NCBI GenBank assembly: GCA_050951545.1
Contig: JBMNJG010000005.1
Span: forward strand, 326,483-390,482
Direction of reading: 5' to 3'
Origin: Limnochordia bacterium
GTDB taxonomy: Bacteria; Bacillota; Limnochordia; DTU080
Length of the DNA: 64,000 nt
Shown: in pieces, positions 11,305 through 28,787 of the stretch
How positions within the stretch are numbered: position 1 is the first letter of the stretch
Layout of the letters: every line of letters starts with the position of its first letter
Notes under the pieces: model-generated
The model's input: the letters and a program-made list of their open reading frames with translations, nothing else
Database searches by the model: none
Told to the model about the DNA's origin: nothing
Program-made: the position numbers and the translations under genes

Positions 11305-13518
11305 CTAGGCAACCGACGTCTCTAGCAGGTCGTCTACCTTCCCACCGAGTTCTTGGAGCTGTCCGATGCTCTCTTCAATCTCCTCCGCCGTAAAGAAGTA
11401 GTCTTCCGCCTCCGAATGATAGCCCAAGCGGGCGTCGGCTCGTACGAGGGGCACGTAGGCCCGACGATTCTCGATCTCATCACTAATGGCCTGACGCATC
11501 GTCTGCAGGTAGCCACGCTTGACATCAGATCCTACGTCGTCAGAAGACTCCTCATAGGCATCACGAGCCAGGGCAAAGCGTAGAAAGTGAACGGTCGAGT
11601 GCATGTGGTGAGCAAAGGCCTGGGCGATGATCATTTCGCGTTCGGCTAGTGAGGGCGGACCTTCATCAGGCACCGATGAAGCAGCCAGCGCCTGCCGTAG
11701 CCAGCGCAAACCCTCGTCCCAGCGCACGGCGACCTCTTCATAGCACTTGAGAACCAGCTCAGCGCCGAAGGGCCGGGTCCAATTGTCGACGATATCGCCC
11801 AGGGGCCGCACGCGACAACATATGGGCATGGGAATGCCCTTTTTGGGGAAGTTCCACGGCAAGACAGGGGCTCGGTTCGCTGGTGTGTAGTAGAGCACGT
11901 TGTTGCTAAAAGGATACGGATCGAAGGCATTACCGAAGTGACGCCAGGCCTCTAGGGCGGCATCCTTCCCAGCCGACCCGAAAATGCGACTCGCCACTTT
12001 CGAGAGAAGCTCCTCCACAGGTGGATGCGGCTCCCAGGTAAGCTCACGTTCAACTTCCAGCATGAAATTGGGATAGTTGCCGAAGATCCAGCAGCCCATA
12101 GCGCCTTCTGTACCCTCGCCACGCAGACCACGCCACTTGTCGGCGATGCGCCAGGGGATCGGGTAGTGAGGAACGGTGGCCAACTCGTGCGTCGTGCACC
12201 ACTGCATCTTGGCAAACGCAGGCAGACCACTTGAACGGGCAGCTTGTGCCTGTGCTGAGTAGCGTGGCGACGGACCCACATACTTCATGCTGTACTCGTC
12301 GATGGGGTATGTTTTCCCGTCGAGCTCAAACGATCCGCCCCGCTCAAAGTCGCTCATGATGGCCACGTTGCTCAGCTTCGCCAACAGCTCCAACTGAGGA
12401 CTTGGAGCCAGCGCCGCCCAGCTCCACGTCCAGATCACCACTTTGGCTTGCGGGCTAACACGATGCACAGCGCCTTCCACCGTGGCGATCAACTCGGCTA
12501 CGACATCAACAGGCGAACGTTCTTTGCAGCGAGGGCAGTCGATGTTAGCGCCGTGCGAGTAGCAGTGACTGTGATTCTCGCTGGCGGTAATCAGTATAAC
12601 GCCTCCGAGTCCCGGTGCCAGGCGAAACAGATTGGAGTAGGCCTCGTCGATATAACGGCGAGTCTCAGGTGCACTCGTGCAAAGCGAGTTGACCTGATCA
12701 GCCACATCCATGCCGTTGCCCTTCGCTGAGCGCCCTCGCAGCTCCGGATGCCGCTCCCAGAAGGAGTCGTCTGCCGCTAACGCCTTGGGTTCACAGAAGT
12801 AAATGAACACCTCGATGCCATAGCGAGCGGCCCGACCAATCAGATCGTTCAGTTTCCGCAGGCGACCCTCAGCCTCTTGGCCGAATTCGGGAAAGACAGT
12901 GGAAGGAACCAAGTCCTGCAAGTAGCCATGGATCCACACACCGTTGATACCCAAACGAGACAACGTCTCCAGATAGCCGTTCGGGTAGAAATCCTCATCT
13001 AATGTCAACTCATCGGTATAGTAAGTGCTCCAGAACGATCGCAAAATGCGCGTCTTAAGAAAGGGACTGCGGGCAATGCTTCCTGGCATCAACCAAGGGC
13101 CTCCCGCATCGACCATCATAGTCTCGAGAGCGTAGACACCCTGCAGAACACCACGAGGACTCGCCGAGGTCAGAGTGATCTCACTCTCTTTGATTGACAG
13201 CTGGTATGCCTCATCGAGATCATCCCCGGCCGCAGACAGACGAATCTGTCCTTTGTCAGCAGCGGAGGCATCACGGCTCAGGATGACGCCAAGCTCTGCC
13301 AGGAATCGAGTCAACTCATCAGCAGCGGTCTCGAGTGCCGCACCGGAACCTTCAATCTCCAAGTGCCAACGGCCATCAAGAACAACAGCGCCCTTCTTTG
13401 CTGGGCGCGGAGCAGTAATGACCGGGCGCATTGGCTGGGCAAGTCTCGTCTTGAACGACCACGGTCCCTCAGCGGGCCACGTCGTTCTTGGAAACATGAT
13501 ATCAGACATCGTGCGCAT
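11305..13518 (-). CDS. Hypothetical glycoside hydrolase-like protein (GH20-domain-2 N-terminus plus TIM barrel)
   Basis: EAYQLSI..GVLQGVYALE module, GINGVWI, SLCTS, Cys motif HCY..CPRC. Confidence 0.65.
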   Translation of the reverse strand: MRTMSDIMFPRTTWPAEGPWSFKTRLAQPMRPVITAPRPAKKGAVVLDGRWHLEIEGSGAALETAADELTRFLAELGVILSRDASAADKGQIRLSAAGDDLDEAYQLSIKESEITLTSASPRGVLQGVYALETMMVDAGGPWLMPGSIARSPFLKTRILRSFWSTYYTDELTLDEDFYPNGYLETLSRLGINGVWIHGYLQDLVPSTVFPEFGQEAEGRLRKLNDLIGRAARYGIEVFIYFCEPKALAADDSFWERHPELRGRSAKGNGMDVADQVNSLCTSAPETRRYIDEAYSNLFRLAPGLGGVILITASENHSHCYSHGANIDCPRCKERSPVDVVAELIATVEGAVHRVSPQAKVVIWTWSWAALAPSPQLELLAKLSNVAIMSDFERGGSFELDGKTYPIDEYSMKYVGPSPRYSAQAQAARSSGLPAFAKMQWCTTHELATVPHYPIPWRIADKWRGLRGEGTEGAMGCWIFGNYPNFMLEVERELTWEPHPPVEELLSKVASRIFGSAGKDAALEAWRHFGNAFDPYPFSNNVLYYTPANRAPVLPWNFPKKGIPMPICCRVRPLGDIVDNWTRPFGAELVLKCYEEVAVRWDEGLRWLRQALAASSVPDEGPPSLAEREMIIAQAFAHHMHSTVHFLRFALARDAYEESSDDVGSDVKRGYLQTMRQAISDEIENRRAYVPLVRADARLGYHSEAEDYFFTAEEIEESIGQLQELGGKVDDLLETSVA

Positions 13519-13686
13519 ACCCCCTCTGGTAAAGGCTTACTGATTTCCTGCCACCTCTAGCCCTTATTGCAGAAAAACACACGATTCACTTCTAGTACTT
13601 GAGTGTAGCCCGTGGACAATCCTCCCTACATCGTGTGCATATCGAGGTTAACGCGCAGATGCTGTAGACCGAGGGGGCACATAAGT

Positions 13687-13724
13687 GCAGCAGGGACCGA
13701 GCCACGAAGTCCGGTCCCTGCTGC
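13687..13724 (-). terminator. Terminator-like hairpin
   Basis: GCAGCAGGGACCG/CGGTCCCTGCTGC 13-bp stem downstream of lipoprotein C. Confidence 0.65.
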
Positions 13725-13754
13725 CAAGCGAACACGAAGCCCTAGCTGTGGCGC

Positions 13755-14251
13755 CTAGAAATCCAGAGGCTCCTGCACCAGGTTCAGAAACTCAAGTTTG
13801 GTGACCTTCCACTTCTTATCGATACTGCGCAGGGTGACCCTGAGGGGTGATCTGCGCTCCATTCTCGACCCCCTTGAGCATTCCTTGTCCCAGCAATCCA
13901 ATTGGACATCCTTGTAGGCACCGCTGGCCGTAGCTGTCCCGCCGTCCACCTTGATGTCGCGCGCGGTCAACTGCGCGGCCGGGTGTTCCCAAACGCCAAA
14001 GTAGTAAAAGCCCTCAAAGAAATCTTCCCTATTTGCATACGTCGCATCCCATCCTCGCGTGCGACCTCCGCAACCACATCCTGGACTATGACGGTGTTCA
14101 GATACGTGACATCGCCCTTAACAATCGCCTGCATTACCTCATTCAGGACCGTGTTGATGGCCTCTGTCTCATCAACCCGCCGACTGAGACATCCAGTGGC
14201 AATCAGAGCCAGTCCGAGCAACGCCACCAAAAACAGTTTTTTCTTCATCAC
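13755..14251 (-). pseudogene. Lipoprotein paralog C, one frameshift near 14045-14055
   Basis: MKKKLFLVALLGLALIATGC..VLNEVMQAIVKGDV in one frame; YANREDFFEGFYYFGVWEHPAAQLTARDIKV..KKWKVTKLEF in another. Confidence 0.75.
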
Positions 14252-14514
14252 GTAATCCTCCCCGGTGTTGCGCGAATGCGGTACCTGTACCTATCACCTC
14301 TGTAGATACATTGATGGTACCCGAGGCCTCCATCTTCCTATCTGGAATGGTGGTAAATTCCATGCCTACCCAGGAACTTCCTGCGGGCAAAGCAACGTTT
14401 TCCGAAATCTTCCTGCCCTATCATGGAAGCCCGAGGAAAAACACAAAGCCCGGACGCCATCCGGACTCTGTGACTTGCTCTATCGCTAGGTAGGGAAATG
14501 GTCTGGCTGCTCTA

Positions 14515-14919
14515 CTAGGCGTCTTTGGGCCGTCGCATCTCGGCAAAGCGCAGCACGACGTGGGCCACTAGAGCAAAGATGAAGAAAACAAGAAGCATCG
14601 AGGAAATGCCCCGTAGGGTCTCGATCACCGTGCGGTAGATCTCGACAAACCAGCGTTCGGACGTTAGCTCTACAACCCGGGCGCTTTGATCCCAACTCGG
14701 AGGCGTGATATACCTATCAAGCTGTGTAATGCGTACACCAGACGAGATACCTACAACCACCATGGCAAACCTCAGGTACTGCGCCCACGCGGAGCTACTC
14801 TCGTCAGCAATGATCCGGGCGAGAACACGGTCGATAGGCTTGACAAAGTAGCGGGCTACGCCATAGGAGACACCTGTCGCCAGGACAAACGAGACCACGA
14901 GCAGTGTAATGAACATCAC
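14515..14919 (-). CDS. Small membrane protein, hypothetical
   Basis: Three hydrophobic segments; AAGGAG SD; 134 aa. Confidence 0.75.
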   Translation of the reverse strand: MMFITLLVVSFVLATGVSYGVARYFVKPIDRVLARIIADESSSAWAQYLRFAMVVVGISSGVRITQLDRYITPPSWDQSARVVELTSERWFVEIYRTVIETLRGISSMLLVFFIFALVAHVVLRFAEMRRPKDA

Positions 14920-15062
14920 GCCACTCCTTCCTGCATCACAGGCTGTTCAGGCGAGGATTCCTCTTCAACAGCCCCTCGTGAATTCCTATGCGCAGCCAGG
15001 AAAAGGGATGCTCGCTCCGTCGACGAAGGCTTGACACGCACATCCTGGAAAGGAGTCTTTCC

Positions 15063-15797
15063 ATGTCCGCACGGCAACTGCATCTGATGGTTGTAGGCGC
15101 TCATGCCTTTGATGCCGAGGTAATGGCTGGCCACCTGATCGCCAAATACACCCGCGCCGGACACAAGGCAACGATTGTCCACCTCACCATGGGAGAAAAG
15201 GGGCACAAGATCCTTGCACCGGAGGAGTACGCCGCCCAGAAGAAAGAAGAGGCGAAGGCGGCTGCCAAGGTGCTTGGCGCCGATGTGCGATTTCTGCCCT
15301 ACAAAGATGCCGAACTGCCCGCCGATGACGATGTGAAATACGCGCTATGCGACATCATCCGTGAGACCAAGCCCAACATCATCATCACCCACTGGAAAGG
15401 CAGCATCCATAAAGACCACATCAACACCCATCTCATTGTCGAAGATGCTCGCTTCTATGCCGCTCTCCCCGCTATCCAACGTGCCCTGCCCGCGCACGGC
15501 GCTTGGGGCCTGTTCTATGCTGAGAACTGGGAAGACCCCGAGGGTTTTGAGATTGATACTTACGTGGATATTACCGATGTCTTTGATCAGTGGGTTGAGG
15601 CTTGCCACCAGTATGCGCTGGGCAGGGGTGAAGTCTCGAGTTTTCGCTATATGGATTACTACCAGGCCCTCGCCACTATGCGTGGCTGCTTGGCCGGGTA
15701 CAGCCGCGCAGCAGCGCTCATGCGACCCAGGGGAGCCCATGTGCGCAAGGGCCAAGCTCTGCCAGGCTACGAATTGGAGCAGCTACGAGGAGACTAG
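15063..15797 (+). CDS. PIG-L/LmbE family N-acetyl-sugar deacetylase
   Basis: VGAHAFDAE, LTMGEKG, ITHW..HKDH motifs; AAAGGAG SD before ATG 15063. Confidence 0.85.
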   Translation: MSARQLHLMVVGAHAFDAEVMAGHLIAKYTRAGHKATIVHLTMGEKGHKILAPEEYAAQKKEEAKAAAKVLGADVRFLPYKDAELPADDDVKYALCDIIRETKPNIIITHWKGSIHKDHINTHLIVEDARFYAALPAIQRALPAHGAWGLFYAENWEDPEGFEIDTYVDITDVFDQWVEACHQYALGRGEVSSFRYMDYYQALATMRGCLAGYSRAAALMRPRGAHVRKGQALPGYELEQLRGD

Positions 15798-15952
15798 CAG
15801 TTGTGATTCATTTCGCCACGCTGTAGATGATGGTGCCGAAGCCGCTGAGATCCTTGCCAGTTGGGGGCCTGCACGGCAGGCGTTTCAGACAAGATGCCAC
15901 GAAGCCTTGCTGTACCATAGCTAACGTCTACAGATAACGGGGAGGTCAGCGT

Positions 15953-16943
15953 ATGGAGGCGACCAGCATCCGCATTCGCGGGTACCAAGGAGGAGACGAA
16001 AAATCACTGATCGCTTGTTGGAACGCCAGTCTACCCTACGATACTATCAACGAGCAGGTCTTCGTGCGCAAAGTGTTGTGCGACAGCAACTTCGACCCTG
16101 AGGGGCTGGTCGTAGCTGAGGGGCCACACACAGAGATCGTGGGGTTTGTACTGGCCTTGGTGCGCCGCACCCCGCTCTTCGGCAGTGACCTGGAGCCATC
16201 TGATGGCTGGATCACCGCCTTTGCCGTCAGCCCTGCCTGGCGCCGCCAAGGCATCGGTCGGGCCCTGTTTGCTGCTGCCGATAGGTTCTTGCGTGCACGC
16301 GGCCGCAAGTGCGTGTCGTTCGCTCCGTATGCGCCCCATTACTTTGTTCCCGGTATTGACGCGCAGCATTACCCAGAAGGTGCGGCCCTCTTGTCAGCCA
16401 TGGGTTTTGGCAACCTCTACCCGTGTGTATCGATGGACATCAGCCTCCCACTGTTTGTGATACCCACTGACGTGCAGGCCACTGTGTGGCAACGGCAACA
16501 GGAGGGCTATCGTTTTGAGCCGCTTTCCCTTCCCTACGTCCTAAAGACCATCGACTTGGCTCACAGCCACTTCCACGCAGATTGGGGCCGCTGCCGTGCG
16601 CGAGGCCTTGGCAGCTGGTGTCCCCCATGATCGTTTCTTGATCGCCATTGGCCCCTACGACGAGGTAGTCGGCTTCTGCATGTGGGGCGCTTACGATCAT
16701 GCGCCCGACCGTTTCGGTCCCTTCGGTGTGCTGGAGAAAGAGCGCGGAAAGGGCCTGGGCAAAATCCTGCTCTATCTCGGGCTCGAGGCCATGCGTACCA
16801 TGGGGGTGCATGATGCCTGGTGTCTGTGGACGGGCGAAAACGGCCCTGCGGGTCGCTTGTACAAACGCGCTGGATTCACGGTCACTCGACGATTCACGGT
16901 GATGAAAAAGCAGCTGACTCACATGGAAGGTGAGATGGCATGA
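15953..16943 (+). CDS. Tandem-GNAT acetyltransferase, frameshifted (+1) near 16590
   Basis: First GNAT (VSPAWRRQGIGRAL) in 15953-16630, second (GPFGVLEKERGKGLG..LYKRAGF) in 16596-16943; removing one base gives DWGRAVREAL. Confidence 0.8.
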
Positions 16944-18043
16944 GAACCCTAGTTACAGGTGATCCGGAAAAGGCGGGCCTCGACCCTAATCAACTGAACT
17001 ATGCCTATCAGACGGTAGAGCGCTGGAGCGAGGCACGCAAGATACCAGGCGCTGTGCTTGCCATTGGGCGTCACGGGATTCTCGTTGGACCAAGAGCCAT
17101 CGGGCTAGCCAGCCTAGAACCCGAGGAAAAACCCTTGCGCCCTGACGCCCTCTATGACTTGGCCTCAGTCACCAAAGTCGTGGCCACAACCACCTGCGCC
17201 CTGATGCTCATTGAGCACGGTGCCATGCGTCTCGACGATCCTGTGTCATTCTTCTTGCCAGAGTTCAAGCACGAAACCGTAGCCATTCGTCATCTGCTCA
17301 CACACAGCTCAGGTCTGCCTGCATGGCGCCCTCTTTATCAGAGCAATGCGACGCCCCAGGAGATGATCAGTACCCTCATGCAGCTGCCTTTGGAGTACGA
17401 AACAGGTCAGCGCGTCGTCTACAGCTGTCTGGGCTATATACTGCTGGCACAGGTGATTGAGCACGTCAGTGCTACACCTCTAGATGAACTGGCTCGGACC
17501 GAGGTCTTCGCTCCACTGGGGATGCTCGATACCATGTATCGGCCTGATGCCCAGCGTCGCCAGCGCGCTGTACCCACAGAGAGGGACTCTCGTACGGGGC
17601 AGTTCAAACAAGGCGTAGTACATGACGAAAATGCCTTTGGGCTCGGCGGGGTTAGCGGCAATGCCGGTCTTTTTAGCACAGCTGCAGACACAGCGATTTT
17701 CTGCCAGATGCTACTCAACAAAGGCTGCTACGGCGCCACCCGTATTCTGTCCCCCGCTATGGTAGGCTTAGCTACTGCTAATCACACAGGGCATCTGAAT
17801 GACTCCCGCGGTCTGGGTTGGGTGATCAAGGGCCATCACCGTTGGTCCTCTGCTGGCGACCTGTTCTCCCCGTCCTCTTTTGGGCACACGGGTTTTACGG
17901 GTACATCCCTGTGGATCGATCCCGTATGCGACCTATTCCTGGTACTGCTGACGAACGGCGTACACCCCGCAAGAGAGGCAGCACAACACATCCGCTTACG
18001 CCCCCTTGTGGCCAACGCCGTGGCTTCGGCGATCGTTCAGTAG
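16940..18043 (+). CDS. Beta-lactamase-fold serine hydrolase
   Basis: SVTK (SxxK), LLTHSSG, YSC, GVVHDENA and GHTGFTG. Confidence 0.9.
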   Translation: MRTLVTGDPEKAGLDPNQLNYAYQTVERWSEARKIPGAVLAIGRHGILVGPRAIGLASLEPEEKPLRPDALYDLASVTKVVATTTCALMLIEHGAMRLDDPVSFFLPEFKHETVAIRHLLTHSSGLPAWRPLYQSNATPQEMISTLMQLPLEYETGQRVVYSCLGYILLAQVIEHVSATPLDELARTEVFAPLGMLDTMYRPDAQRRQRAVPTERDSRTGQFKQGVVHDENAFGLGGVSGNAGLFSTAADTAIFCQMLLNKGCYGATRILSPAMVGLATANHTGHLNDSRGLGWVIKGHHRWSSAGDLFSPSSFGHTGFTGTSLWIDPVCDLFLVLLTNGVHPAREAAQHIRLRPLVANAVASAIVQ

Positions 18044-18079
18044 CTGAAACGACGTTTTGGAAAGGAAAGGGGCCTCACA

Positions 18080-19423
18080 ATGACCGTTCTTCATGCTGGT
18101 GCAGCCGAAGTAGATATCACACCTGCACTGGGAACCTATTTGGCCGGATCGTTTACTGAACGCCAAGCGCACGACGTCTCCGATCCCCTGCGAGCGAAAG
18201 CACTCGTAATAGATGATGGCCGTAGGCAGGTGGCCTTGGTCGTGCTCGATCTCATCGGTTTGGCCAGCTCGGACGTGCAGGAAATACGCAAGCTGGTGCA
18301 CACATCCATTGGCATGCCGCCTGAGCACGTGTTGGTGGCCTGCACACACACCCACACTGGCCCGATCACGCGTCCCTGGCACGCCAAACGAGATGAGGAG
18401 TATTTTGCCTGGCTAGCCAGACGCGTCTCAGATTGTGTACGGCTGGCCCACAAGCGTCTCCGTCCGGCGCGGCTGGCCTGGGGACAGGGTGAGGTCCACG
18501 GCATCAGTTTCTGTCGGCGCTATCGTATGCGCGATGGCACGGTACGCATGAACCCCGGAAGGGGAAATCCGGACATTGTTGAACCCACGAGTCCCGTCGA
18601 TCCGGCTGTAGGTGTTCTTCTTGTGGAAAATGACGAGGGAACACCTATGGCAGTAGTGACCCAGTTTAGCCTGCACTATGTGGGCACCGACGATTCGCTG
18701 GCGATCTCTGCCGACTACTACGGGCATTTCGATCGGTTCATGCGACGCATACTGGGTCCCTCTTGCCTGCCTATGCTCTTCAACGGTACCTCTGGGCAAA
18801 TAAACAACGTGGATGTCTTCGCCACGCATCGTGAATCCGGGCATCGCCAGGCCCGTCGCGTCGCTAGCATCCTCGGCGGAGAAGTGCTCAAGGTCTTGGG
18901 CACGCTCAAAACCAGAGATGACATTTCCGTGGCGGCAAGCAGCCAACCGATAGAACTACCCCGGCAGAACGTCACCTCGGAAGATCTCGAAATCGCCAGA
19001 GCCATCTTGGCAGGCCATGACCCGCATCCCGAAAGCGGTCCCTTTAGCTTTGTGGTGGGCCAGCCGATCCCTGCAGTGCGCCGAGCACACTATGCCCGGC
19101 AATGCCTGCGCCTCAACGAGCTACCTGCCCACCTCGTAAGCGAGGTGCAGGTACTGCGCATAGGCGAGTCTGCTTGGGTGGGACTCCCCGGTGAGATCTT
19201 TGTTGAAATCGGGCTGGCGATCAAGAAAACCTCACTCTGCCCGGATACCTTCGTCATCGGTCTGGCCAACGACAACCTTGGTTACGTCCCCACGGACTAT
19301 GCCTTTCTTCACGAAGGTGGATATGAGACTTGGGCTGGCGGCTGGAGGCCTGTCGGCCCAGGTACAGAGGGCATTCTCGTGACTACCGCGCACAGCCTGT
19401 TGCGCGGCCTTTGTACCAGGTAA
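18080..19423 (+). CDS. Neutral/alkaline ceramidase-like amidohydrolase (paralog of 2161-3504)
   Basis: Shares CTHTHTGP, MNPGRGNPD, SLHYVGTD, NGTSGQINNVDV, WVGLPGEIF and HEGGYET. Confidence 0.8.
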   Translation: MTVLHAGAAEVDITPALGTYLAGSFTERQAHDVSDPLRAKALVIDDGRRQVALVVLDLIGLASSDVQEIRKLVHTSIGMPPEHVLVACTHTHTGPITRPWHAKRDEEYFAWLARRVSDCVRLAHKRLRPARLAWGQGEVHGISFCRRYRMRDGTVRMNPGRGNPDIVEPTSPVDPAVGVLLVENDEGTPMAVVTQFSLHYVGTDDSLAISADYYGHFDRFMRRILGPSCLPMLFNGTSGQINNVDVFATHRESGHRQARRVASILGGEVLKVLGTLKTRDDISVAASSQPIELPRQNVTSEDLEIARAILAGHDPHPESGPFSFVVGQPIPAVRRAHYARQCLRLNELPAHLVSEVQVLRIGESAWVGLPGEIFVEIGLAIKKTSLCPDTFVIGLANDNLGYVPTDYAFLHEGGYETWAGGWRPVGPGTEGILVTTAHSLLRGLCTR

Positions 19424-19428
19424 TGCAA

Positions 19429-19453
19429 GAGGCGCCCCACACACGGGCGCCTC
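19429..19453. terminator. Hairpin between convergent genes
   Basis: GAGGCGCCC/GGGCGCCTC stem. Confidence 0.55.
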
Positions 19454-19454
19454 A

Positions 19455-19781
19455 TCAATATCGTTCCAGGTCCAGCGGCCCCCTTTATGCATGTCTGCTG
19501 ACTCCACTAACCCTGCGTTGGCCATCTGGTCTTTGTCGTAGTAGAGGGCCGGCACCTCGTAGGTGTTCTTGATCCGGCGAAAGCTGCACTGCTTCTGCTT
19601 CGACGCCGAGATTCCTGGCGTTAAACGCCTCAACCAGTGGTTCTATGTAGGCCAAACTCCACGAGGAGAGTGCCACCTTCGCTTCAGTTGGAGGTACCAA
19701 TCCCAGTGAAATCACTGTGGTTGCAGCAAGTACCCAGGCGAGCCAAACTGCACACCGTTCGTTTACACCCATGGGTCTCAT
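19455..19781 (-). pseudogene. Remnant of an ABC sugar-binding protein gene
   Basis: Signal peptide plus LVEAFNARNLGVE, joined out of frame to ALYYDKDQMANAGL..RWTWND; large internal and 3' deletions. Confidence 0.6.
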
Positions 19782-19887
19782 CCTCCTCTACGGAAATACC
19801 TGCCCCGGCTAGGCTACCATAGGTTACCACCGCTACCCCCTTGCTGACAGGCGTGACTACGACAGCATGTGGGCGAATATTGACGAA

Positions 19888-19924
19888 GGCGGGAGCGATG
19901 ACCCGAAGGCCCACCGTTCCCGCC
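19888..19924 (-). terminator. Hairpin with a TTCG-containing loop downstream of the poly-Cys gene
   Basis: Minus strand GGCGGGAACGGTGGGCC-TTCG-GGTCATCGCTCCCGCC followed by TT. Confidence 0.55.
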
Positions 19925-19980
19925 CAGAGTCAGATGAAAACGCCCATCGTCCAGGACTTTTCGAGAACCGCCTTAAGTTC

Positions 19981-20157
19981 TTACCACCTGTCGCGGTGTC
20001 TAGGGAAGCACGGGCGACGGCAGCAGCAACAGCAACAGCAGCAACAGCAACGACAACGACACCAGTCCCAGGAGCTGTCATGTCTGCGACGTCGACGGCT
20101 ATCCTCGCGGTCACCCCGGTCGTAGTCACATCGATCATGGTAGTACTGGTCCGACAC
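19981..20157 (-). CDS. 58-aa Arg/Asp-rich, poly-cysteine small protein
   Basis: GGAGGAGGTG SD at 20174-20165, GTG start 20157; MSDQYYHDRCDYDRGDREDSRRRRRHDSSWDWCRCRCCCCCCCCCCRRPCFPRHRDRW; Cys run uses mixed TGC/TGT codons. Confidence 0.65.
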   Translation of the reverse strand: MSDQYYHDRCDYDRGDREDSRRRRRHDSSWDWCRCRCCCCCCCCCCRRPCFPRHRDRW

Positions 20158-20309
20158 GGTTACGCACCTCCTCCGATGAACGCTCTTGGCCCTCTCCAGA
20201 AGCAGACTACGTTCGGTTAGGCCGACAGGTAACGGGAATAGAACCCCGAATCGACGTGACTGGGCTCCGTAGCTGCCTTGGGCCTGGGCCGCTAGCATGG
20301 CACACAAAG

Positions 20310-20354
20310 AGCCCCCGGTACCAAGGGCATTGGAGACAGCCCATACCGGAGGCT
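20310..20354 (-). terminator. Terminator-like hairpin
   Basis: Minus strand AGCCTCCGGTA..TACCGGGGGCT followed by CTTT. Confidence 0.5.
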
Positions 20355-20431
20355 TGCTTGTCTAGTGCCAGTAAGTCGCAATAGCCGCAGTTCTATAGGT
20401 AAGGGGGTACTCGTCTAGGTGCCCAAAAACG

Positions 20432-21163
20432 TTACTTAGGCGCCGCAGTTCCTTCTACCCTTGGCCCGACCATGCGCCCCAACGCCAAGGTGTTCGTTCC
20501 TGTCGTAGAGGTATTGCCCCAGGCATACAGGCGAAAGGTCACCTCCACTCCCTCTGGGATATTCTGCAGCATATCAAAGGTGGTTAGATCGATTGTGGGA
20601 ATGGGGTCGCCAGGGGACGTCGTCGTGTTTGGATGCCCCGCTACGTCGCTTTTCATGTAGAGAAATGGATCGGCCAAAAGCGGATCTGGCTGTTTTCGCG
20701 TTCCGGAGGTGCGACCGTAGTAGTTGAATTCGGAGATGATTGTCCCATCGGTCTTGAAGCCGTCGAAGCTCACCTGTAGCTCAACGTTCATAGGCGCAGA
20801 CAGTGCTGAGCGGCGCAGCGATAAATCAAGCGTAGACAGGGAAACCCTGAAATCGGGCTGCACAGTGAAACCGAACTGAAAGTACCCGCCAGCAGCGAAA
20901 GAGTCTGCGCGCGATTGCGCCTTGTCCCAGCCATCCGCCGAAAAGCCATTGGTGAGTGTAGCCAGATTAATGCCCGGCCCACGCGTCAAGTCCATAGGCA
21001 CGATACCAGTCAGCCCTGGGTCGGCCTTAACCAGTTCAGCAGGTTGCTTTATGCCTACCACATTGTAGCAGAGAGAGAAACTGGAGGCTGGTGTGGCTCC
21101 GAAAACTGCCACGCTGAGTAACAGCACGCTCAGAATCATGAAAGAGAGCTCACGCCGAATCAT
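20432..21163 (-). CDS. Secreted hypothetical protein
   Basis: Signal peptide; beta-rich body (YFQFGFTV, VTFRLYAW); AGGGGG SD. Confidence 0.75.
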   Translation of the reverse strand: MIRRELSFMILSVLLLSVAVFGATPASSFSLCYNVVGIKQPAELVKADPGLTGIVPMDLTRGPGINLATLTNGFSADGWDKAQSRADSFAAGGYFQFGFTVQPDFRVSLSTLDLSLRRSALSAPMNVELQVSFDGFKTDGTIISEFNYYGRTSGTRKQPDPLLADPFLYMKSDVAGHPNTTTSPGDPIPTIDLTTFDMLQNIPEGVEVTFRLYAWGNTSTTGTNTLALGRMVGPRVEGTAAPK

Positions 21164-21264
21164 GCCACGATCACCCCTTTTGCAGATATGTGCCCAACTC
21201 CAAGCGAGTACCCCATGCCGAATACATCAGTTGTTCACTGCCCGACTCGGCATTCCTGCGAAAA

Positions 21265-21297
21265 AACTGCCCCAAGCACAGTGCGCCTGGGGCAGTT
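21265..21297 (-). terminator. Intrinsic terminator
   Basis: AACTGCCCCA/TGGGGCAGTT stem with a T-tract on the minus strand. Confidence 0.7.
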
Positions 21298-21322
21298 CTC
21301 TACACATAATTGGTGGCCATGA

Positions 21323-22387
21323 CTACGATCGGAAATCGGGGACCTCTACAGGTTTGCCGCCCTGTTCGGCAGACAGGTGTGCGCAAAGACCAGGTGCAGT
21401 ATAGTCAAGAGCCTTGTAGACATCGACAGGTGGCTCTTTATCCTCCAGGATCGCCTCTATGAAGCCCTGAATCATCACGTATTCGGCAGAGCCGTGACCA
21501 CCTAACGAGGCCCAGCCAGGCAGACCCTTGTGCACTGTGTTGATCGGTATGTTCACCATGCCATGCAGATTCGGTATGTCCTCGAAGTAGCCGATGGTTT
21601 CGGCACCATCGCGTTTTTTCTCAAGGCACCCCTTGGTGCCGTAAACTGAGTAGTAATGGAAGCCCGGCTGGCGCCGCAGACCGAAGCCCGTGAGAATCTT
21701 CACCACGCTACCGTGCTTTGTCTTGAACAAGCCAGCCTCCATGTCGATGGTGCCAAACTCGGTGTCGATGTTCGACCCCGTGTGCATGCCCACCGCTGTA
21801 ACGCATCGATCATCGGTCAGGCTCAAAATGGGACCCAGGCTATGCGTGCAGTAATGGATCGGCGGGTGAAACGCCCGCCACGTCGGCTTTCCATCAGCTG
21901 TTCTGCGAAGAGTCGGACCACCGGGGATGGCACCGCTAATATACTCAGCCTCTCCATAGATGATCTGGCCGAGCCTTCCTTGCCGGACCATCTCCCTCCA
22001 CGACTCGATGAAAGCCCAGAAATTGGGGTTGGCGCCCATCATGTACTTGGCAGGGCTTTCCTTCACAGCCTGAGCTAAGGCCCGGCACTCCTCGAGTGAC
22101 GTTGCCGCTGGTACCTCACTGAGTACGTGTCGACCGCTCTTCAACGCAGCTATGCTTTGTTCCACGTGAAAGGCCGGCGGAGTAGCGATCACGACAACAT
22201 CCAGATCATGATTCAAGAACTGCTCAAAATCACCATAGGCTCCTGGGATGTTCCATTCCCGAGCCGCGCGTTCCACCCGTTCTGGCATCTGATCGCAAAC
22301 TGCCACTACCTTACACTCGGGATGCTTGCTAAACATGGTCAGGAAATTCATGCCTCGTCTGAGTCCGATTACGCCTACTTTCAACAC
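21323..22387 (-). CDS. Gfo/Idh/MocA family oxidoreductase
   Basis: LKVGVIGL Rossmann start, DVVVIATPP..H, HVLSEVP, GGHG near the C-terminus. Confidence 0.9.
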   Translation of the reverse strand: MLKVGVIGLRRGMNFLTMFSKHPECKVVAVCDQMPERVERAAREWNIPGAYGDFEQFLNHDLDVVVIATPPAFHVEQSIAALKSGRHVLSEVPAATSLEECRALAQAVKESPAKYMMGANPNFWAFIESWREMVRQGRLGQIIYGEAEYISGAIPGGPTLRRTADGKPTWRAFHPPIHYCTHSLGPILSLTDDRCVTAVGMHTGSNIDTEFGTIDMEAGLFKTKHGSVVKILTGFGLRRQPGFHYYSVYGTKGCLEKKRDGAETIGYFEDIPNLHGMVNIPINTVHKGLPGWASLGGHGSAEYVMIQGFIEAILEDKEPPVDVYKALDYTAPGLCAHLSAEQGGKPVEVPDFRS

Positions 22388-22528
22388 TCACTCATACTCC
22401 TTCCCGGGGCGCTTGTTTTGCTTCAGGCCCTTGTGTATCAGGTTCGAGGACCCAAGTGTGCTGACCTTTCGCCATTGGGCGCAAAGGCATGTCACGAGGA
22501 GTAAGCGCGCTGATTGGGGCACCGGGTA

Positions 22529-25500
22529 CTACCGCTCCTCAAACCCCTGGACTCTGAACTTCAGCGTGCGGCTATTCTCGGTAACGATACGCACAACGTC
22601 ATCAGGAACCCCGTCGGGCACCTTTACGGAGATCTCCAGCGTTACCTCTACCTCGGCCCCCGGCAAAGCCGCGAGATGACAGATGACCTCGTCAGCGATG
22701 CGTCCAGCATCTCTTCCGACACGCAAGGGGTCTAGCGCCACACCGCCGTGGAAACGGCTGAGCACCAGAGGAGCGGGAGTTGTTGCAGTGGAAGACTCAT
22801 CCTTGTCCTCGGATTTGTGTCCCCCCGGTTGGCACCCATCTACATCTGGCGGCTCAGAGGTAGGAGGAGCAACCTTGACTCGCTCGGCCTCGAGCTGTCT
22901 AGCAGCGATATCGGGATGCACCAGTAGTCCCCGGGGGTCTGAGCTGGCCAGAGTGATCTGTTCGTGTGTACGCAGACCAAGGTAACGGCCACTGCTTTCG
23001 TCGAAGCTGTCCGCATAAGCAAAAGCATCTGAGCGCCAATGGAGAAGACTCATGCCGTCGCCGATCGCCCCTAGCAGAACGTCAGGGCTCTTCAGTCTCG
23101 ACAGATACGGATAGCGAGCATAGTCCTCAATAAGCTGGCGTACCGCCACGTGGTTGCCGCGCCACAACGGCACCCGGTCCAAGTCCATCCGGAGCCGCGT
23201 ACCCGCCAAACTGACTACCAGTAGCTCATCGTTACACAGCTTTCGGCTGGCCCGTACCGCCAGGGCATCCTGTCCGCTTAGTCTGAAGCTCTCCCAGACG
23301 ATGGTGGACTGTGGCGTCTCTTGTATAGGTACCAGAAGCCACTGGTAGGCCTCTGGAATGCGAGCGGTTACAGCATCATCTGCTGCCTTTTCTTGCGTCT
23401 CGGCCTGTCGTACCTGATGCGGCGTAAGATCCAAGGCTGCCTGATCTGCCACAATGGATCTCCAGGCCAGATAGCGGCGTACTGCCTCATCGAGATCCTG
23501 CAGACGGGACTTGTCTGGGGCCATAAAGACCAGAGTATTCCTGTAGAGGCGAGGTGCGCTTCCTCGACTCTCGAGAATCTCCTGGGCACAGAGCTGGGCC
23601 GGCGTATCCGCCCCCCTACTGTGGGGATGATCAAGGCCGAGAATCACCAAGCGTGTATCGAGGTCATCTGGCACGTCTTGAGAGGCCAACGGAAACAGAT
23701 GAACCCGACAGAAATCGCCTGTCTGACGCATGTCGAGGCGCAACCTCTCGCGCACCTCCTTGGCGATGGCCTCGGGCTCCCTCCTCATCTGCTCTGCCCT
23801 ATCGTCCGCCAGTTTGGTAACGGTAGGCTGCGTGGAGTACCAATACCGCGAGCCATCCTGATATAGGTAGGTGGCTGAGGCCGCAAGCCGGCGCAGGGCA
23901 TCGCCGAAGACTGTAGGCGATTCGCCCGGCATGACGCAACCGAGTTTGATGTGCCCATCGTCCAAGCCCCGGTTAGCCGCCGTATGTGTGGGAGCCGAAC
24001 CCATGTAGATCGTTCTGGCAACACGTCGACACGCAGAGAACTTACCCAAGTTGGGTACCTCAGCGTCGATGCGCAATGGCAGCGATGTCGAGCCGTCCAC
24101 ATCCTTTTCGATCACGGGCACCCAGTTGTCGGATAGGTAGCGCGTCAGCTCTCGCTGAACCCGAGGGTCGTCGATAGGGATGCTCGCGGGCAGAATAAGT
24201 GGGTTACGATCACCTTTCTCCCAGAGGCTGTGAATCACGGCTGCCATGAGGCGCAACACTCCGCGCGTGCGCTGAAACTTCAGCAGTGTAGACCAGTCGG
24301 TGTACAGACGATCAAAGACCTCGGGATGAATCGGGTAGGCTGCCTTGAGGCGCGTCTCGTACTCACTGTCGTGGCAGGTCGCCGGAAACTCCTGATGCTG
24401 CGTGCGATAAAGCTCATAGAAGGCCCGGGCCACCGTATCTCGGGCCACAAACTGCTCTCTTTCGACAAGCGGTTCGAACAGACGTCGGCGCACAATCTCA
24501 AAACTCTCTTCGGCACTTGCTGGTCGCCACGATGACTCAATGCGCCCGACCACGTTCTGCAGGCGGTTGAGTGCCTCTCTACCGCGCAAGCCCCCGACCT
24601 CCGCATCATCTGCCTGTGTATGAGGCGATGCGGTAGTATCGGAGGCTGGTAGGCTAATGACAAGCAGACATTGGCGCGCCAGCTTCGCTGACTCGGTGAG
24701 CGCCTGAGCGAAGGTAAACTGCGTCTCAAAGCTACCTGCTGGAAGATCCGCGTGATCGTGCAGCTGGCGTGCATAGGCCACCCACTCGTCAATAAGGACT
24801 AAGCACGGACCGTATTCATCAAAGAGGAGGCGCAGCGCATCGCCCGGGCTTGTCCCTAGTTCGTCGTCAGCTTGGACGCGCGCGAAGGCCTCTTTACCCC
24901 CCAGCTGCCAAGCTAGCTCACCCCACAGAGTCCTGACCACCGTGCCGTCAGGCTTGGTCACCGGATTACCCGGCGATATCCTGTTGCCCACGAGTACGAC
25001 TCTGCGAGCAGTGGGCAACTCATCCAAATCAGCCTCATCAAGAAGGCTGTCGACGCCGAGCAACTCGCCAGCGCGAATGCCAGAGCACAGGTGGTAAAGC
25101 GCCAGCATTGAGTGGGTTTTGCCACCACCGAAGTTGGTCTGTAGCTGCACCACAGGGTCGCCGCCCAGACCTTTCAGGCGCTTAATACCGCCTACCAACA
25201 GACGGCGCAGGCTCTCCGTAAGGTAGGTGCGCCGGAAAAACTCGACGGGATCTTTGTACTCATCACTTCCTTGACCCAGATGGACCTGCCATAGATCCGC
25301 GGCGAATTCAGCTTGCTGGTAGTTGCCGCTGGCCACGTCGTGATGAGGCGTGATCACTTCACGCCAGGGTTTGAGATGAGCGCTAGCCCCGCCCTCAATA
25401 ACGTTGGTGGCACTTTTGCGTCGCTCATGGCGCGCCTGCTCTTCGAAGCGCAGGCGCAACAGCTCCATCCTCAGCCTGTCCACCTCGGCTGCTTGTGGAG

Positions 25501-25873
25501 CGGAAATCGCCGTCAAGAGACGACTCGCTGAGTCTAGGGCCCGATGTGCATCATCGCTAGAGAAGGGAGTTTGGTGGGCCCACCTGTTGCGCACCTCGCG
25601 CAGCTCGCTTACCAAGCTGCGTTCTGCCTGACCAAGTGTCTTGCGGAAGATGTCATTCCACTGCTCCCACATAAGCCGCAGCAGTAGGGCGACATCAAGA
25701 TGAGGCTCGTCCTCGTCACCGCTCCAGACCAGATCGTTTGGCCAGCTTCGGGTGACCCGCGTAATCCAGTACTTGCCGTATTGGGCCTGTAGCTCTCGCT
25801 CCACAAAGGGGGCAATACCCTCTTTCAGTAGCTCGAGCGCCTTACCGACTCGTTCATGGTTGGTCAGTGCCAT
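22529..25873 (-). CDS. Swt1-like HEPN-DUF499 AAA+ ATPase (defence system component)
   Basis: N-terminal HEPN with RNRWAH (Rx4H); LKPWREVITPH, EFAADL, Walker A QTNFGGGKTH, Walker B LIDEW, AYPIHP, FQRTRGVLR. Confidence 0.9.
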   Translation of the reverse strand: MALTNHERVGKALELLKEGIAPFVERELQAQYGKYWITRVTRSWPNDLVWSGDEDEPHLDVALLLRLMWEQWNDIFRKTLGQAERSLVSELREVRNRWAHQTPFSSDDAHRALDSASRLLTAISAPQAAEVDRLRMELLRLRFEEQARHERRKSATNVIEGGASAHLKPWREVITPHHDVASGNYQQAEFAADLWQVHLGQGSDEYKDPVEFFRRTYLTESLRRLLVGGIKRLKGLGGDPVVQLQTNFGGGKTHSMLALYHLCSGIRAGELLGVDSLLDEADLDELPTARRVVLVGNRISPGNPVTKPDGTVVRTLWGELAWQLGGKEAFARVQADDELGTSPGDALRLLFDEYGPCLVLIDEWVAYARQLHDHADLPAGSFETQFTFAQALTESAKLARQCLLVISLPASDTTASPHTQADDAEVGGLRGREALNRLQNVVGRIESSWRPASAEESFEIVRRRLFEPLVEREQFVARDTVARAFYELYRTQHQEFPATCHDSEYETRLKAAYPIHPEVFDRLYTDWSTLLKFQRTRGVLRLMAAVIHSLWEKGDRNPLILPASIPIDDPRVQRELTRYLSDNWVPVIEKDVDGSTSLPLRIDAEVPNLGKFSACRRVARTIYMGSAPTHTAANRGLDDGHIKLGCVMPGESPTVFGDALRRLAASATYLYQDGSRYWYSTQPTVTKLADDRAEQMRREPEAIAKEVRERLRLDMRQTGDFCRVHLFPLASQDVPDDLDTRLVILGLDHPHSRGADTPAQLCAQEILESRGSAPRLYRNTLVFMAPDKSRLQDLDEAVRRYLAWRSIVADQAALDLTPHQVRQAETQEKAADDAVTARIPEAYQWLLVPIQETPQSTIVWESFRLSGQDALAVRASRKLCNDELLVVSLAGTRLRMDLDRVPLWRGNHVAVRQLIEDYARYPYLSRLKSPDVLLGAIGDGMSLLHWRSDAFAYADSFDESSGRYLGLRTHEQITLASSDPRGLLVHPDIAARQLEAERVKVAPPTSEPPDVDGCQPGGHKSEDKDESSTATTPAPLVLSRFHGGVALDPLRVGRDAGRIADEVICHLAALPGAEVEVTLEISVKVPDGVPDDVVRIVTENSRTLKFRVQGFEER

Positions 25874-25876
25874 CGT

Positions 25877-28787
25877 CTATCCCTCACTCTCCGCGAACAG
25901 TCCCGGCTGCCCCGCATCTGACTCCGGTGCCGCTTGCGACAAACGAATGATCTCGGGCCAGCTTTGCACAAGGCTGTTGTACCAGAAGGCCTCGCGCGCC
26001 CATTTCTTACGCTCACACATGGTGTACAGGCGATAGGCCAGATCGCGGGCCATCTCCGCTTCAGAACTGAGCTTGCGCACCAGCTGAGCCGCTATCCTCT
26101 CGCCGCCTGTCTCCAAAGTGCGGACCAACTGATGCACGGACTCCCAGACTGTGAGGCGGGTATCACGGGCTGGATCCCAATCAGCAGCTAGCTCGTCGGG
26201 GGTGAGCAGGCGCACTTGGCCCCCAGCAGAACGCAGGAAGCCTGCCTGGACCATGCCGGAAACGCTGGTGTTCTTGGCCTTCGATAGCGTCTCTGCTACG
26301 CCGTACTCGCCCGCTTCGAAGCCGTGCTGCTCAAACCAAGCCAGGGCCCAGCGGGTATCGGCATCCACATCGTCCCTCTTGCTCCGCCAGCACCTCATCC
26401 AAGGCCTGGTTGATCAGTGTTAATGCCTCACGCACGGTGAGTCGCTCCCCATCCGCATCAAGCACCTTGGCGTAACGCGTGTAGACCGCCATGCCAGGAC
26501 CAATAGCAGCCTGGGCCAAGTCTACCGGAGCGATATTGCCTCTCTGTAGGTGGACGAGAGCCGTGGGCAACTCCGTACGCAAGGCGGTGAGAAACTCCCG
26601 GCGGCTAGCCGTAGGGGCGTCTGCAGGACGAGGGCGGCAGACCAGAACGATGCTGGAGGCGAGGGCGTTGGTGCCCATGGCCACCTGCCTGTTTTGCATT
26701 TCAGTACGCAAGGGCCATGTCCCACTGACACCAAAGCCTGCCTCGATCACTGCCTCGAGAAACGTCTCCCACCCCGTGCTGGCAGTACCAGAAGTACCTT
26801 CAGTCTCGGACTGTTTGAAGGCATAGTAGATGGTCACTGGGAAGGCGGAGTGTGTCTGTTCAGCCAACCGTTGCATGGCCAAGCCCATACCGTCAAGGAA
26901 GAAGGCCTCTGCCTCTGCTCTCCCCCCATGTCGGCTCGGTGAAGCTATCAGTTCTTCTGTCTTTGGCACGGCCACCGTCGCGAAGAGGCTAGGGTAAATG
27001 CGCCGCAGAGAGCGCCGCAACCAGACGTAGAAGAAATCCGATAGATCCGCGTATCCGATGTTGTCGTAGTAAGGGGGGTCGGTGGAGACAACCTTACACA
27101 GTGACTGTTCCTGCTTCTGTGCATCCGCCTGCGTTGATGAGCCCTGCCCCTTTGCAGGAAGTGTGTCAAGCACTTTCCAAACCCAGTCCACCATCGCCAT
27201 CCAGTTTCCCGTTGAACTCGAGAAGGGGATTCCCCTCGGCATAGTCCCAAACCATGGGTATAGCCTGCCTGCCAAAAGTGTTCCGCATCGTCTCGCGCGT
27301 GTTGTGCCACGCACATACCGACGACCAGTAGTCTGCTCCCTTGTCCACAGCGAACGCCAAGATACACCCCCACGGCCTCAGCATAGGCCGTCGCCCCGCT
27401 GCCCCCCGCTATCGAGGCCCAGGCCATCGTCCGACCAGCCAGCGACTTGAGCATCCTGTCGTACCTGCTCGATGGCCTCTTGTACCAGGTCGGAGAAGGT
27501 GGTCAGCGCCACGAGTTGACGCGGGGTGAAGAGATGACCAAAGGTGGTTAGCCCGTAGAGTGGGGGCGAGAACCAGCGTGGGTTGCTGGGCATCTCTACC
27601 TCTGGCTTCCACTCAGGACAAGCTTGTCGCGCTGTTTCTTCCATCCCAGCTAATGGTGGCAAGTAGACGCGTTCGCGTGCCCCCTCCACCACGATCGCCA
27701 TCAGTCGGGCGCCCATGCGTCCGGCGCTAGCCTCCGCGTAGATGTGCTCTGGCTCAATCGGGGTCTCGGACATGATGCACTCGAAGTTGGCCCCCCGCCC
27801 CAGCTTTGTCCCCCGCCTCTTCTCCTCCATATCCTTCGGTTTGCCCACCTTGACCACAAAGCGGTAGCCGCCGTTCTCAATTACTGGCTCCACGTAGGCC
27901 TCCTTGCCCTTCCTGGTGGAGACCATGAAGTTCGAGATAAGGGGCACATCCACATCCGCAAAGGCCGGGTTCGGGCTCTTGACCGTGCGCGCCCAGAGCC
28001 AGGCGATCACGGTGAGCTCCTGACCCACGTACTGCTCGAGGTCAGGTCGTTGCTGAGCCATCTCCGCTGTGATCTCCACCTTCGGGTAGAGATGGCCGAT
28101 CCGCTTCTCGGCTTCATTACGCATCCACTGCCCGTAGTAGCGCACGTCTTCAGCGAGCCCTTGTGCGCCAAGCCACTGCTGCTCAACGACCCCGCGCTCT
28201 TCCCTCGTCTCGGGATTGACTGGGGCCCTGCCCGCAAACTTCGGTGGAATCTCAATCATCGCCTTGTTGATCAATACCGCCACCGGGTTGAGGTCACTGG
28301 CATAGCTTTCCAAGCCGAGCCGTTGGGCCTCAAGTGGCAATGAGCCACCGCCAGCAAAGGGATCGTGAAAGGCTGGTAGCTTGTAGCGATCAAATAGCTC
28401 CTTGGCTCGTGGGTGATCGGCGTTTTCTGCACAAGCCCGGCGCCAGCTCTGCCAGATCTCCTCACGAGCTCGCTCTAGCACCTGTTCGTTGGTGGTGTTC
28501 TTCCACATCACCAGTTCCTTGATGATGTCAAAAAGGCGCTGGCGCTCCGTCTCTTGCGCCTTTTCTGTGGGGAACAACTCTGGATAGGCCGAAGGATCAT
28601 CCACCATCTGAGCAAAGATCACCGCTCGTGCTGCGGCCAAGGGCCTGCGGGCCCACCACAGATGCAGCGTGCTTGGGTGCCCGTGGCGAATAGACTTTTC
28701 TCGAGCGGAGGCGGCGTTTATCGCATCAAGTGGTACGGCGACCTCGATAAGCTTCTTTCTTGTGATCACAGGCACTTCCGTCTTCAT
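25877..28787 (-). CDS. DUF1156 adenine-specific DNA methyltransferase, split by four +1 frameshifts
   Basis: [14 protein letters not shown] (DUF1156), DPFAGGGS (motif I), TDPPYYDN (motif IV), NALASSI; frame breaks near 27405, 27358, 27226 and 26376. Confidence 0.85.

Follow-up and report, generated by a model that had tools for sequence, protein, structure and literature searches.

Does a run of ten consecutive Cys codons in a bacterial genome mark a working gene, or is it a microsatellite that happens to lie in an open frame? This question is raised by a locus on the minus strand of a 64,000-nt stretch of DNA from a Limnochordia bacterium (hereafter the window; G000:C5:326483-390482), whose source genome, G000, is a metagenome-assembled genome of 3.64 Mb and 93.9% completeness. 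Here, a frame of 58 codons runs from a GTG start (20157-20155) to a TAA stop (19983-19981), preceded at a distance of 7 nt by a Shine-Dalgarno (SD) sequence (AGGAGGTG; GGAGGAGGTG at 20174-20165). Its 58-aa product reads VSDQYYHDRCDYDRGDREDSRRRRRHDSSWDWCRCRCCCCCCCCCCRRPCFPRHRDRW and contains 14 Cys (24%), 15 Arg (26%), 9 Asp, 3 Tyr, 3 Trp and 3 His, with seven aromatic residues in all and a pI of 8.6. Residues 1-32 make up an Asp/Arg/Tyr/Trp module that is charge-balanced (8 basic versus 9 acidic residues) and has a single Cys, and residues 33-58 a cationic tail in which 13 Cys and 7 Arg accompany a single acidic residue. The ten Cys codons (C10) of the tail occupy 20049-20020, with TGT at the second, fifth and seventh codons and TGC at the others; they are followed by 12 further codons and covered by an imperfect trinucleotide repeat that Tandem Repeats Finder places at 20020-20051. 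The first-pass annotation of this locus, which had described a strong SD, a GTG at 20157 and a 58-aa open reading frame (ORF) with 14 Cys and a ten-Cys run, proved accurate on re-reading. Comparison with related sequences makes it probable that the locus is a genuine small protein gene, transcribed alone and confined to one lineage.

Why does the Cys run not identify its own reading frame? The first-pass annotation had taken the mixing of TGC and TGT as the mark of a coding frame. This mixing alone is not decisive, because in the antisense poly-Gln frame, too, the base that varies in the Cys codons takes the wobble position. Since the repeat cannot decide the frame, we used the non-repeat part of the gene, where the choice of the Cys frame stood. 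The comparison drew on a sister species, G001, in which a DNA-level search of 41 related genomes (counting G000) recovered the region with 69% identity over the SD, the start codon and the ORF; G001 and a third species, G002, belong to the genus of G000. Over the 56 aligned codons of G000 and G001 there are 13, 10 and 31 differences at codon positions 1, 2 and 3, and 21 synonymous-only changes stand beside 17 non-synonymous ones. Outside the run, the Cys frame has a proportion of synonymous differences (pS) of 0.79 and of non-synonymous differences (pN) of 0.23, whereas the sense +1 Ala/Val frame and the antisense Thr/Ala frame both have pN/pS values of 1.0 or more. When changed codons outside the run are counted in all six frames, 13 of 30 are synonymous in the Cys frame; the other five frames give 5/31, 7/33, 1/30, 2/31 and 14/33. 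The value of 5/31 belongs to the +1 Ala/Val frame and that of 1/30 to the antisense Thr/Ala frame; both frames are open, and both were rejected as coding for want of a synonymous excess. The highest value, 14/33, belongs to the antisense poly-Gln frame and mirrors the wobble signal. This frame has five stop-bearing codon pairs, is a mere 30 codons long in G001 and was rejected as coding since it is closed there. Finally, the 46 substitutions were randomised 100,000 times: amino-acid identity in the randomised set averaged 18.5 (standard deviation 2.25, maximum 27), compared with an observed identity of 29 out of 46 that none of the runs reached. On the evidence of one species pair and its close strains, we read the Cys frame as one under purifying selection. 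Conservation in the poly-Gln or poly-Ala frame, named in the first-pass annotation as evidence against the gene, is thus not what the two species display.

How has this frame been treated in existing annotation? Exact look-ups in public gene calls returned neither the 58-aa ORF nor its 108-aa extension nor the antisense frames. What is annotated, as a 'hypothetical protein' of 93 aa in G000 and 94 aa in G001, is the overlapping +1 Ala/Val frame, called at 19860-20138 on the minus strand of the window and at 560-841 on the plus strand of L003, without an SD. The 5/31 synonymous codons of this frame and its missing SD suggest that the call is a mis-call. The 108-aa form, which starts at TTG 20307 and had been listed by the ORF track used in the first pass, has no conserved counterpart: 5 codons 5′ of the GTG, the frame is closed in G001.

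What do close relatives preserve of this gene? The orthologue of G001 is 58 aa long and 70% identical, has the blocks YYxDRCDY and HDSSWDWCRC in common with the G000 protein, and ends in a C8-R-C5 tail. It keeps the GTG start, the frame and the motif GGAGGTG 7 nt upstream, and its neighbours, as in G000, are a Gfo/Idh/MocA oxidoreductase gene on one side and a solute-binding-protein gene on the other. The core GGAGGTG of the SD (20165-20174) is likewise invariant, with its spacing to the GTG unchanged, in a strain almost identical to G001 that is represented by a metagenome contig (L014; 4 mismatches over 3442 nt). The small gene of this strain differs from that of G001 by W19R and by a 9-nt in-frame deletion in the Cys run, which leaves C5-R-C5 in place of C8-R-C5. 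Four strain variants of the G000 species, retrieved through the mis-called +1 ORF, are identical over the 52 overlapping residues except for one deletion of a single residue that turns C10 into C9, and all 3 substitutions among them lie 3′ of the stop codon of the small gene. Across its relatives the protein has 55-58 aa, 24-29% Cys and 3-4 His, and its tail has 12-15 Cys with interspersed Arg. Every indel is a multiple of three, namely 6+6 nt between the species, 9 nt in L014 and 3 nt in one of the four G000-species variants, and the 6-nt indels fall, in frame, within the non-repeat N-terminal part. The gene and the boxes upstream of it can be aligned between the species, whereas the downstream flank cannot. 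The first-pass annotation had stated that homologous loci with frame-breaking indels, or without the SD or start, would speak against a gene; the loci found keep frame, start and SD. Its view of a stand-alone coding gene flanked by hairpins gains support from the sister species and the strain variants.

Is the small gene transcribed from a promoter of its own? On its 5′ side, an intrinsic-terminator-like hairpin with a T-rich tail (20301-20354, minus strand, as for all elements of the locus given here; hairpin at about 20354-20311, tail TCTTTGTGTG) ends a 243-aa gene and is kept behind the upstream gene in G001 and L014. It is the sole terminator-like site that the terminator scan detected within 19400-20700. 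Two conserved boxes follow. Box 1 (CCCGTTACC, 20228-20236), a putative -35 element, is invariant between G000 and G001/L014, with a variable spacer. Box 2 (AACGTAsTCTG, 20203-20213), a candidate -10 element about 17 nt after box 1, is conserved in the same comparison. A promoter scan of the locus gave no sigma-70-type promoter. The strict two-box pattern is unique to the small-gene locus in G000, and looser patterns returned scattered, uninformative sites and no regulon. On the 3′ side, a stable hairpin with a weak U tail begins 56 nt after the stop codon (19925-19888); it is more stable than any other local element in the fold and marks the likely transcript end. G001 has a hairpin of unlike sequence at this side, 13 nt past the stop codon and with a U-rich tail, as well as a further stem with a T-run at its end. 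Rfam, searched over 19300-20600 with E up to 1, returned nothing. We infer that boxes 1 and 2 act as a promoter, and these boxes, the strong ribosome binding site and the flanking hairpins suggest that the small gene is a transcript unit in its own right. Metatranscriptome contigs from three runs, looked at over 18000-22500, cover 20347-21192 and parts of the oxidoreductase gene. The small gene is uncovered in these contigs, which cannot show absence, and the mapping leaves out the repeat at 20011-20072. A separate study's DNA run contains an identical copy of the locus, with 0 differences over 19572-20371.

How widely is the gene distributed? A protein search of 95 Limnochordia species genomes found it only in G000 and G001, together with one weak match in G003 (E 0.0025) that was rejected as a relative for its internal stop codon. 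Pattern scans yielded one relative, the G001 record, among 23 pattern matches in 185,579 species genomes, and one, L014, among 70 pattern matches in metagenome contigs. A Cys/Arg-rich frame at a contig start of G033 (L006) was set aside because all six frames are open across what is a long repeat of low complexity. The G000 genome has (TGY)6 at a single locus and no Cys-rich paralogue with a comparable run, so that the paralogue search proposed in the first pass came back empty. Twenty-four of the 95 Limnochordia genomes carry (TGY)6, and when one locus is taken per genome the small ORF is found in G000 and G001 only; the other loci are mostly longer frames, often antisense poly-Gln, and two further (TGY)6 tracts of G001 are Gln-frame ORFs. 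Searched at E up to 10, Pfam gave no family for either the G000 or the G001 protein, bacterial metallothionein included; no NCBIfam family matched the small protein at E up to 1, metallothionein and precursor models included; and a word-index protein search with the 58-aa and 108-aa forms returned nothing. Among 1.84 billion representative proteins, a profile search picked out a single match, to a 528-aa repeat protein, which was dismissed as spurious since it is confined to 'RRRKHE'. The best match in the ESM Atlas (0.82, small Bacillota proteins) is below a meaningful level, and the best match in the PDB (E 0.1, the ferredoxin-like NdhI) was put down to composition.

Some loci collected by the (TGY)6 search deserve a remark of their own. 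On the minus strand of L026 (G080:C16), at 625-1542, a 306-codon ORF in the Cys frame has a twin-arginine-like N-terminus and ends in ...AKACCCCCCCGGGGGNGD; this ORF possibly encodes a genuine protein that has seven consecutive Cys close to its C-terminus. Gln-rich ORFs of about 71-145 codons, measured from stop to stop, are present in L027, L028 and L029 (G012, G017 and G026) and in L048 (G001:C72), and explain some of the (TGY)6 matches, being read on the opposite strand. Those of L027-L029, which come from genus g11, have in common a motif like EAQLFYEFAQELGRRQQ. These Gln-rich ORFs look like a conserved small-protein family.

What could a protein with such a tail do? One possible explanation, which we offer tentatively when the real gene and its function are taken together, is that the product is a multivalent thiol cross-linker, most likely of the spore coat. 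Through its poly-Cys tail the protein would form numerous disulfides between molecules, or metal-thiolate bridges shared by them, the N-terminal module (YYxDRCDY ... HDSSWDWCRC) would dock the cross-linker to its partners, and the most likely setting would be the outer layers, or coat, of the endospore. Trinucleotide slippage would alter the number of Cys between strains and leave the frame intact. A slightly bolder and more doubtful extension is that the protein stands for a new class of bacterial 'thiol polymer', in which a docking module is joined to a Cys tail tuned by slippage (5-10 consecutive Cys), so that the length of the tail sets the number of bridges per molecule and would, for example, harden the spore surface of Limnochordia. 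The bacterium appears able to make endospores, given that G000 encodes SpoIVA (SpoIVA_ATPase, 369.9 bits) and an alpha/beta-type small acid-soluble spore protein (SASP; 90.6 bits), findings that are a precondition for coat membership only. The composition of the product and the lack of a sigma-70-type promoter in the promoter scan also bear on the proposal. Small size and/or an abundance of Cys, Tyr and charged residues characterise known coat and exosporium proteins (CotC/CotU, CotG, CotY/Z and CdeC/CdeM), whose genes are often monocistronic. One preprint describes coat proteins as mostly lineage-restricted and states that data are lacking for classes beyond Bacilli and Clostridia (bioRxiv 10.1101/2022.02.25.481979).

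Several observations weigh against this proposal. The neighbouring genes are of amino-sugar/glycan and defence type, and none is a sporulation gene. The -10-like box reads CGTA, whereas CATA or CATT precedes the spoIVA and SASP genes of G000 when compared by eye; the box is therefore a poor fit to a canonical mother-cell or forespore sigma promoter, and we take it to be more like a -10 element of the extracytoplasmic function (ECF) type. AlphaFold2, run with a 3-row alignment, predicted no fold (mean predicted local distance difference test score 44.1, predicted template-modelling score 0.12), and the searches of Pfam, NCBIfam, the PDB and representative proteins connected the protein with no known family, whether of the coat, the exosporium or elsewhere. 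The sampling amounts to two species and close strain variants, which are kin and not independent, and the organism is uncultured. The third species, G002 (91% complete, 380 contigs), has no small-ORF match: directly 5′ of its binding-protein gene, where G000 and G001 have the small gene, it has a transposase-like fragment and a contig end (L004, G002:C37, locus 2099-2476).

Could the ORF do nothing at all, or act as a leader peptide? A non-functional ORF, that is, an intergenic (TGY)n microsatellite in a chance open frame, conserved through recent ancestry or through constraint at the DNA or RNA level, would fit with the presence, in both species, of three open frames across the region, with trinucleotide slippage that is always in frame, and with the absence of the small ORF from all protein collections searched; moreover, the chance that the non-repeat part stays stop-free after 46 random substitutions is 0.139. 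We regard this explanation as improbable, for the synonymous excess is peculiar to the Cys frame, and is found there outside the repeat; the start codon and SD keep their distance, whereas the 3′ flank is too diverged to be aligned; and the 6-nt indels of the non-repeat N-terminal part stay in frame. Another way for the run to matter is as a cysteine-sensing leader peptide: at low Cys-tRNA, ribosomes would stall on the ten consecutive Cys codons, alter termination at the downstream hairpin and so control the next gene, in the manner of the mycobacterial polycysteine short ORFs. The study of these ORFs sets at least 2-3 consecutive Cys codons as the criterion for a polycysteine leader and counts eight in Ms5788A (bioRxiv 10.1101/834739). 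A terminator-like hairpin 3′ of the ORF in both species agrees with this mechanism, whereas the remaining evidence makes a leader unlikely, to the point that we assign it a small probability. The same preprint describes Ms5788A and Rv2334A as leaderless, as ending in the Cys tract, as leading cysteine operons and as having Cys codons that pair with the next SD (bioRxiv 10.1101/834739). Here, the next gene encodes a carbohydrate-type binding protein (SBP_bac_1 and SBP_bac_8 matches; 467 aa in G001) and not a sulfur gene product, and it is separated from the small gene by terminator-like hairpins. In G000 this binding-protein gene is a relic, in which residues 36-89 and 149-195 survive in two frames, yet the small ORF, its SD and the boxes are intact; in G002 the binding-protein gene is present without a match to the small ORF. 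An ORF of 58 codons whose 32 N-terminal non-Cys residues are under purifying selection is unexpected for a leader, and the ORF continues for 12 codons after the run. Folds from the Cys tract to the next gene, compared with shuffled sequences, gave z values of -1.19 (G001) and -0.83 (G000), and no alternative pairing common to the two species stood out.

If the product is a protein, the main rival of the coat proposal is a metal chelator. In this case, a cytosolic, metallothionein-like peptide would bind Cu(I), Zn, Cd, Ni or Co through its Cys/His-rich tail, or would buffer reactive sulfur or oxygen species, and would be induced by stress through an ECF-type sigma factor. The content of Cys and His in so short a protein is in keeping with such a function, the coding evidence for the Cys frame holds equally for it, the CGTA box and the box 17 nt upstream appear to resemble ECF-type promoters, and habitat records of G000 come from landfill, digester, bioreactor and sludge samples. 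However, classical metallothioneins have CxC/CxxC spacing and few aromatic residues, to which the C10 homopolymer, the seven aromatics and the highly charged N-terminal half are unlike; the Pfam and NCBIfam searches returned no metallothionein family, and no metal sensor, efflux or resistance gene is nearby. On balance, a chelator is a rather unlikely but serious contender. A protamine-like binder, whose Arg/Cys tail would condense DNA or RNA, for instance in the forespore, and be locked by disulfides or zinc, has in its favour the seven Arg, one acidic residue and 13 Cys of residues 33-58, the overall pI, and a size and Arg/Cys composition that recall mammalian protamine P1. It is made quite unlikely by the charge-neutral N-terminal half with its 9 acidic residues, by the lack of homology in the Pfam, PDB and representative-protein searches, and by the conventional SASP for spore DNA that G000 encodes. 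The layout of a conserved N-terminal part and a variable, Cys-rich C-terminal part would also suit the precursor of a ribosomally synthesised and post-translationally modified peptide (RiPP), with a leader and a core in which an enzyme encoded elsewhere would install thioether or thiazole links. The first-pass annotation had noted no YcaO, radical SAM or lanthionine enzyme in the window. Genome-wide, YcaO has 0 matches in G000, at its completeness of 93.9%, and LanC has 0 as well, a weak result given that the LanC control matched no control genome. As to radical SAM, G000 has 13 matches, with none of the 13 on the 390-kb contig C5; one of them is weakly like the maturase of 'six cysteines in forty-five' (SCIFF) peptides, and this best match to TIGR03974 is on another contig and reaches 73.5 bits against a cut-off of 425. 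No NCBIfam precursor model matched the peptide, and neither species has a transporter or protease gene adjacent to it. A RiPP precursor is unlikely, and we give it very little credence. Of the four functions initially listed for this protein, the RiPP precursor has been weakened, the metallothionein is without a family match, and the coat protein and the protamine rest on composition and on core sporulation genes.

The surroundings of the small gene differ between the species. The relic of the sugar-type solute-binding-protein gene lies at 19457-19733 on the minus strand and was delimited by tblastn with the intact 467-aa protein of G001; this SBP_bac_1 gene is intact in G001 and G002. The 243-aa protein encoded at 20432-21163 on the minus strand carries a hydrophobic segment at its N-terminus and is matched by no Pfam or NCBIfam family. 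Its gene sits between the oxidoreductase gene and the small gene in G000 and is not found there in G001; it is covered by contigs of three biogas or sludge metatranscriptomes and has partial DNA matches in G005 and G011. Farther away, also on the minus strand, 22529-25873 encodes a 1114-aa HEPN_Swt1 and DUF499 protein and 27378-28787 a DUF1156 protein, with a 327-aa ORF between them. These HEPN_Swt1/DUF499 and DUF1156 genes look like a defence-type cluster. On the other side, 11305-19423 is a run of amino-sugar/glycan type, with a GH20 domain, a PIG-L deacetylase, a GNAT acetyltransferase, a beta-lactamase fold and a neutral-ceramidase-like protein whose matches are all weak.

Why should a gene of 58 codons merit attention? 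Uninterrupted Cys runs seem to be very rare in proteins, and in a non-exhaustive search of the literature we met bacterial ones only as regulatory leader ORFs. Here, the run is part of a small gene that bears the evolutionary marks of a working protein. That the gene was missed and a wrong frame annotated in its place illustrates how unusual microproteins can escape automatic annotation. Should the product be made, it would provide a simple natural model of multivalent thiol chemistry, be it cross-linking or metal capture, and possibly a first handle on the spore-surface proteins of a class that is common in anaerobic digesters.

How does the small protein compare with known systems? Bacterial metallothioneins of the SmtA/BmtA type and MymT resemble it in having about 50-60 aa, more than 20% Cys, His residues and no signal peptide. 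They are unlike it in that the small protein has a Cys homopolymer, many aromatic and charged residues, no metal-regulatory neighbour and no family match. With the Cys-rich coat and exosporium proteins, such as CotY/CotZ of B. subtilis and CdeC/CdeM of C. difficile, and with the small Tyr/Asp/Lys-rich coat proteins CotC/CotU/CotG, the likeness is one of lineage-restricted, often monocistronic genes in an organism that has core sporulation genes, and of a low-complexity Cys/Tyr/charged composition that suits cross-linking; sequence homology is absent and the promoter boxes do not resemble the SigE/SigK type. We know of no coat protein that could be cited for a homopolymeric C10 run. In the run itself, a likeness exists to the mycobacterial polycysteine ORFs, which, according to Canestrari et al. 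(bioRxiv 10.1101/834739), are also unannotated short ORFs with an uninterrupted run of Cys codons (eight versus ten) that is conserved between relatives. Unlike those ORFs as described there, the small gene of G000 has a strong SD, a conserved non-Cys N-terminus of 32 residues and 12 codons after the run, and is then followed by a hairpin and a decayed sugar-binding-protein gene.

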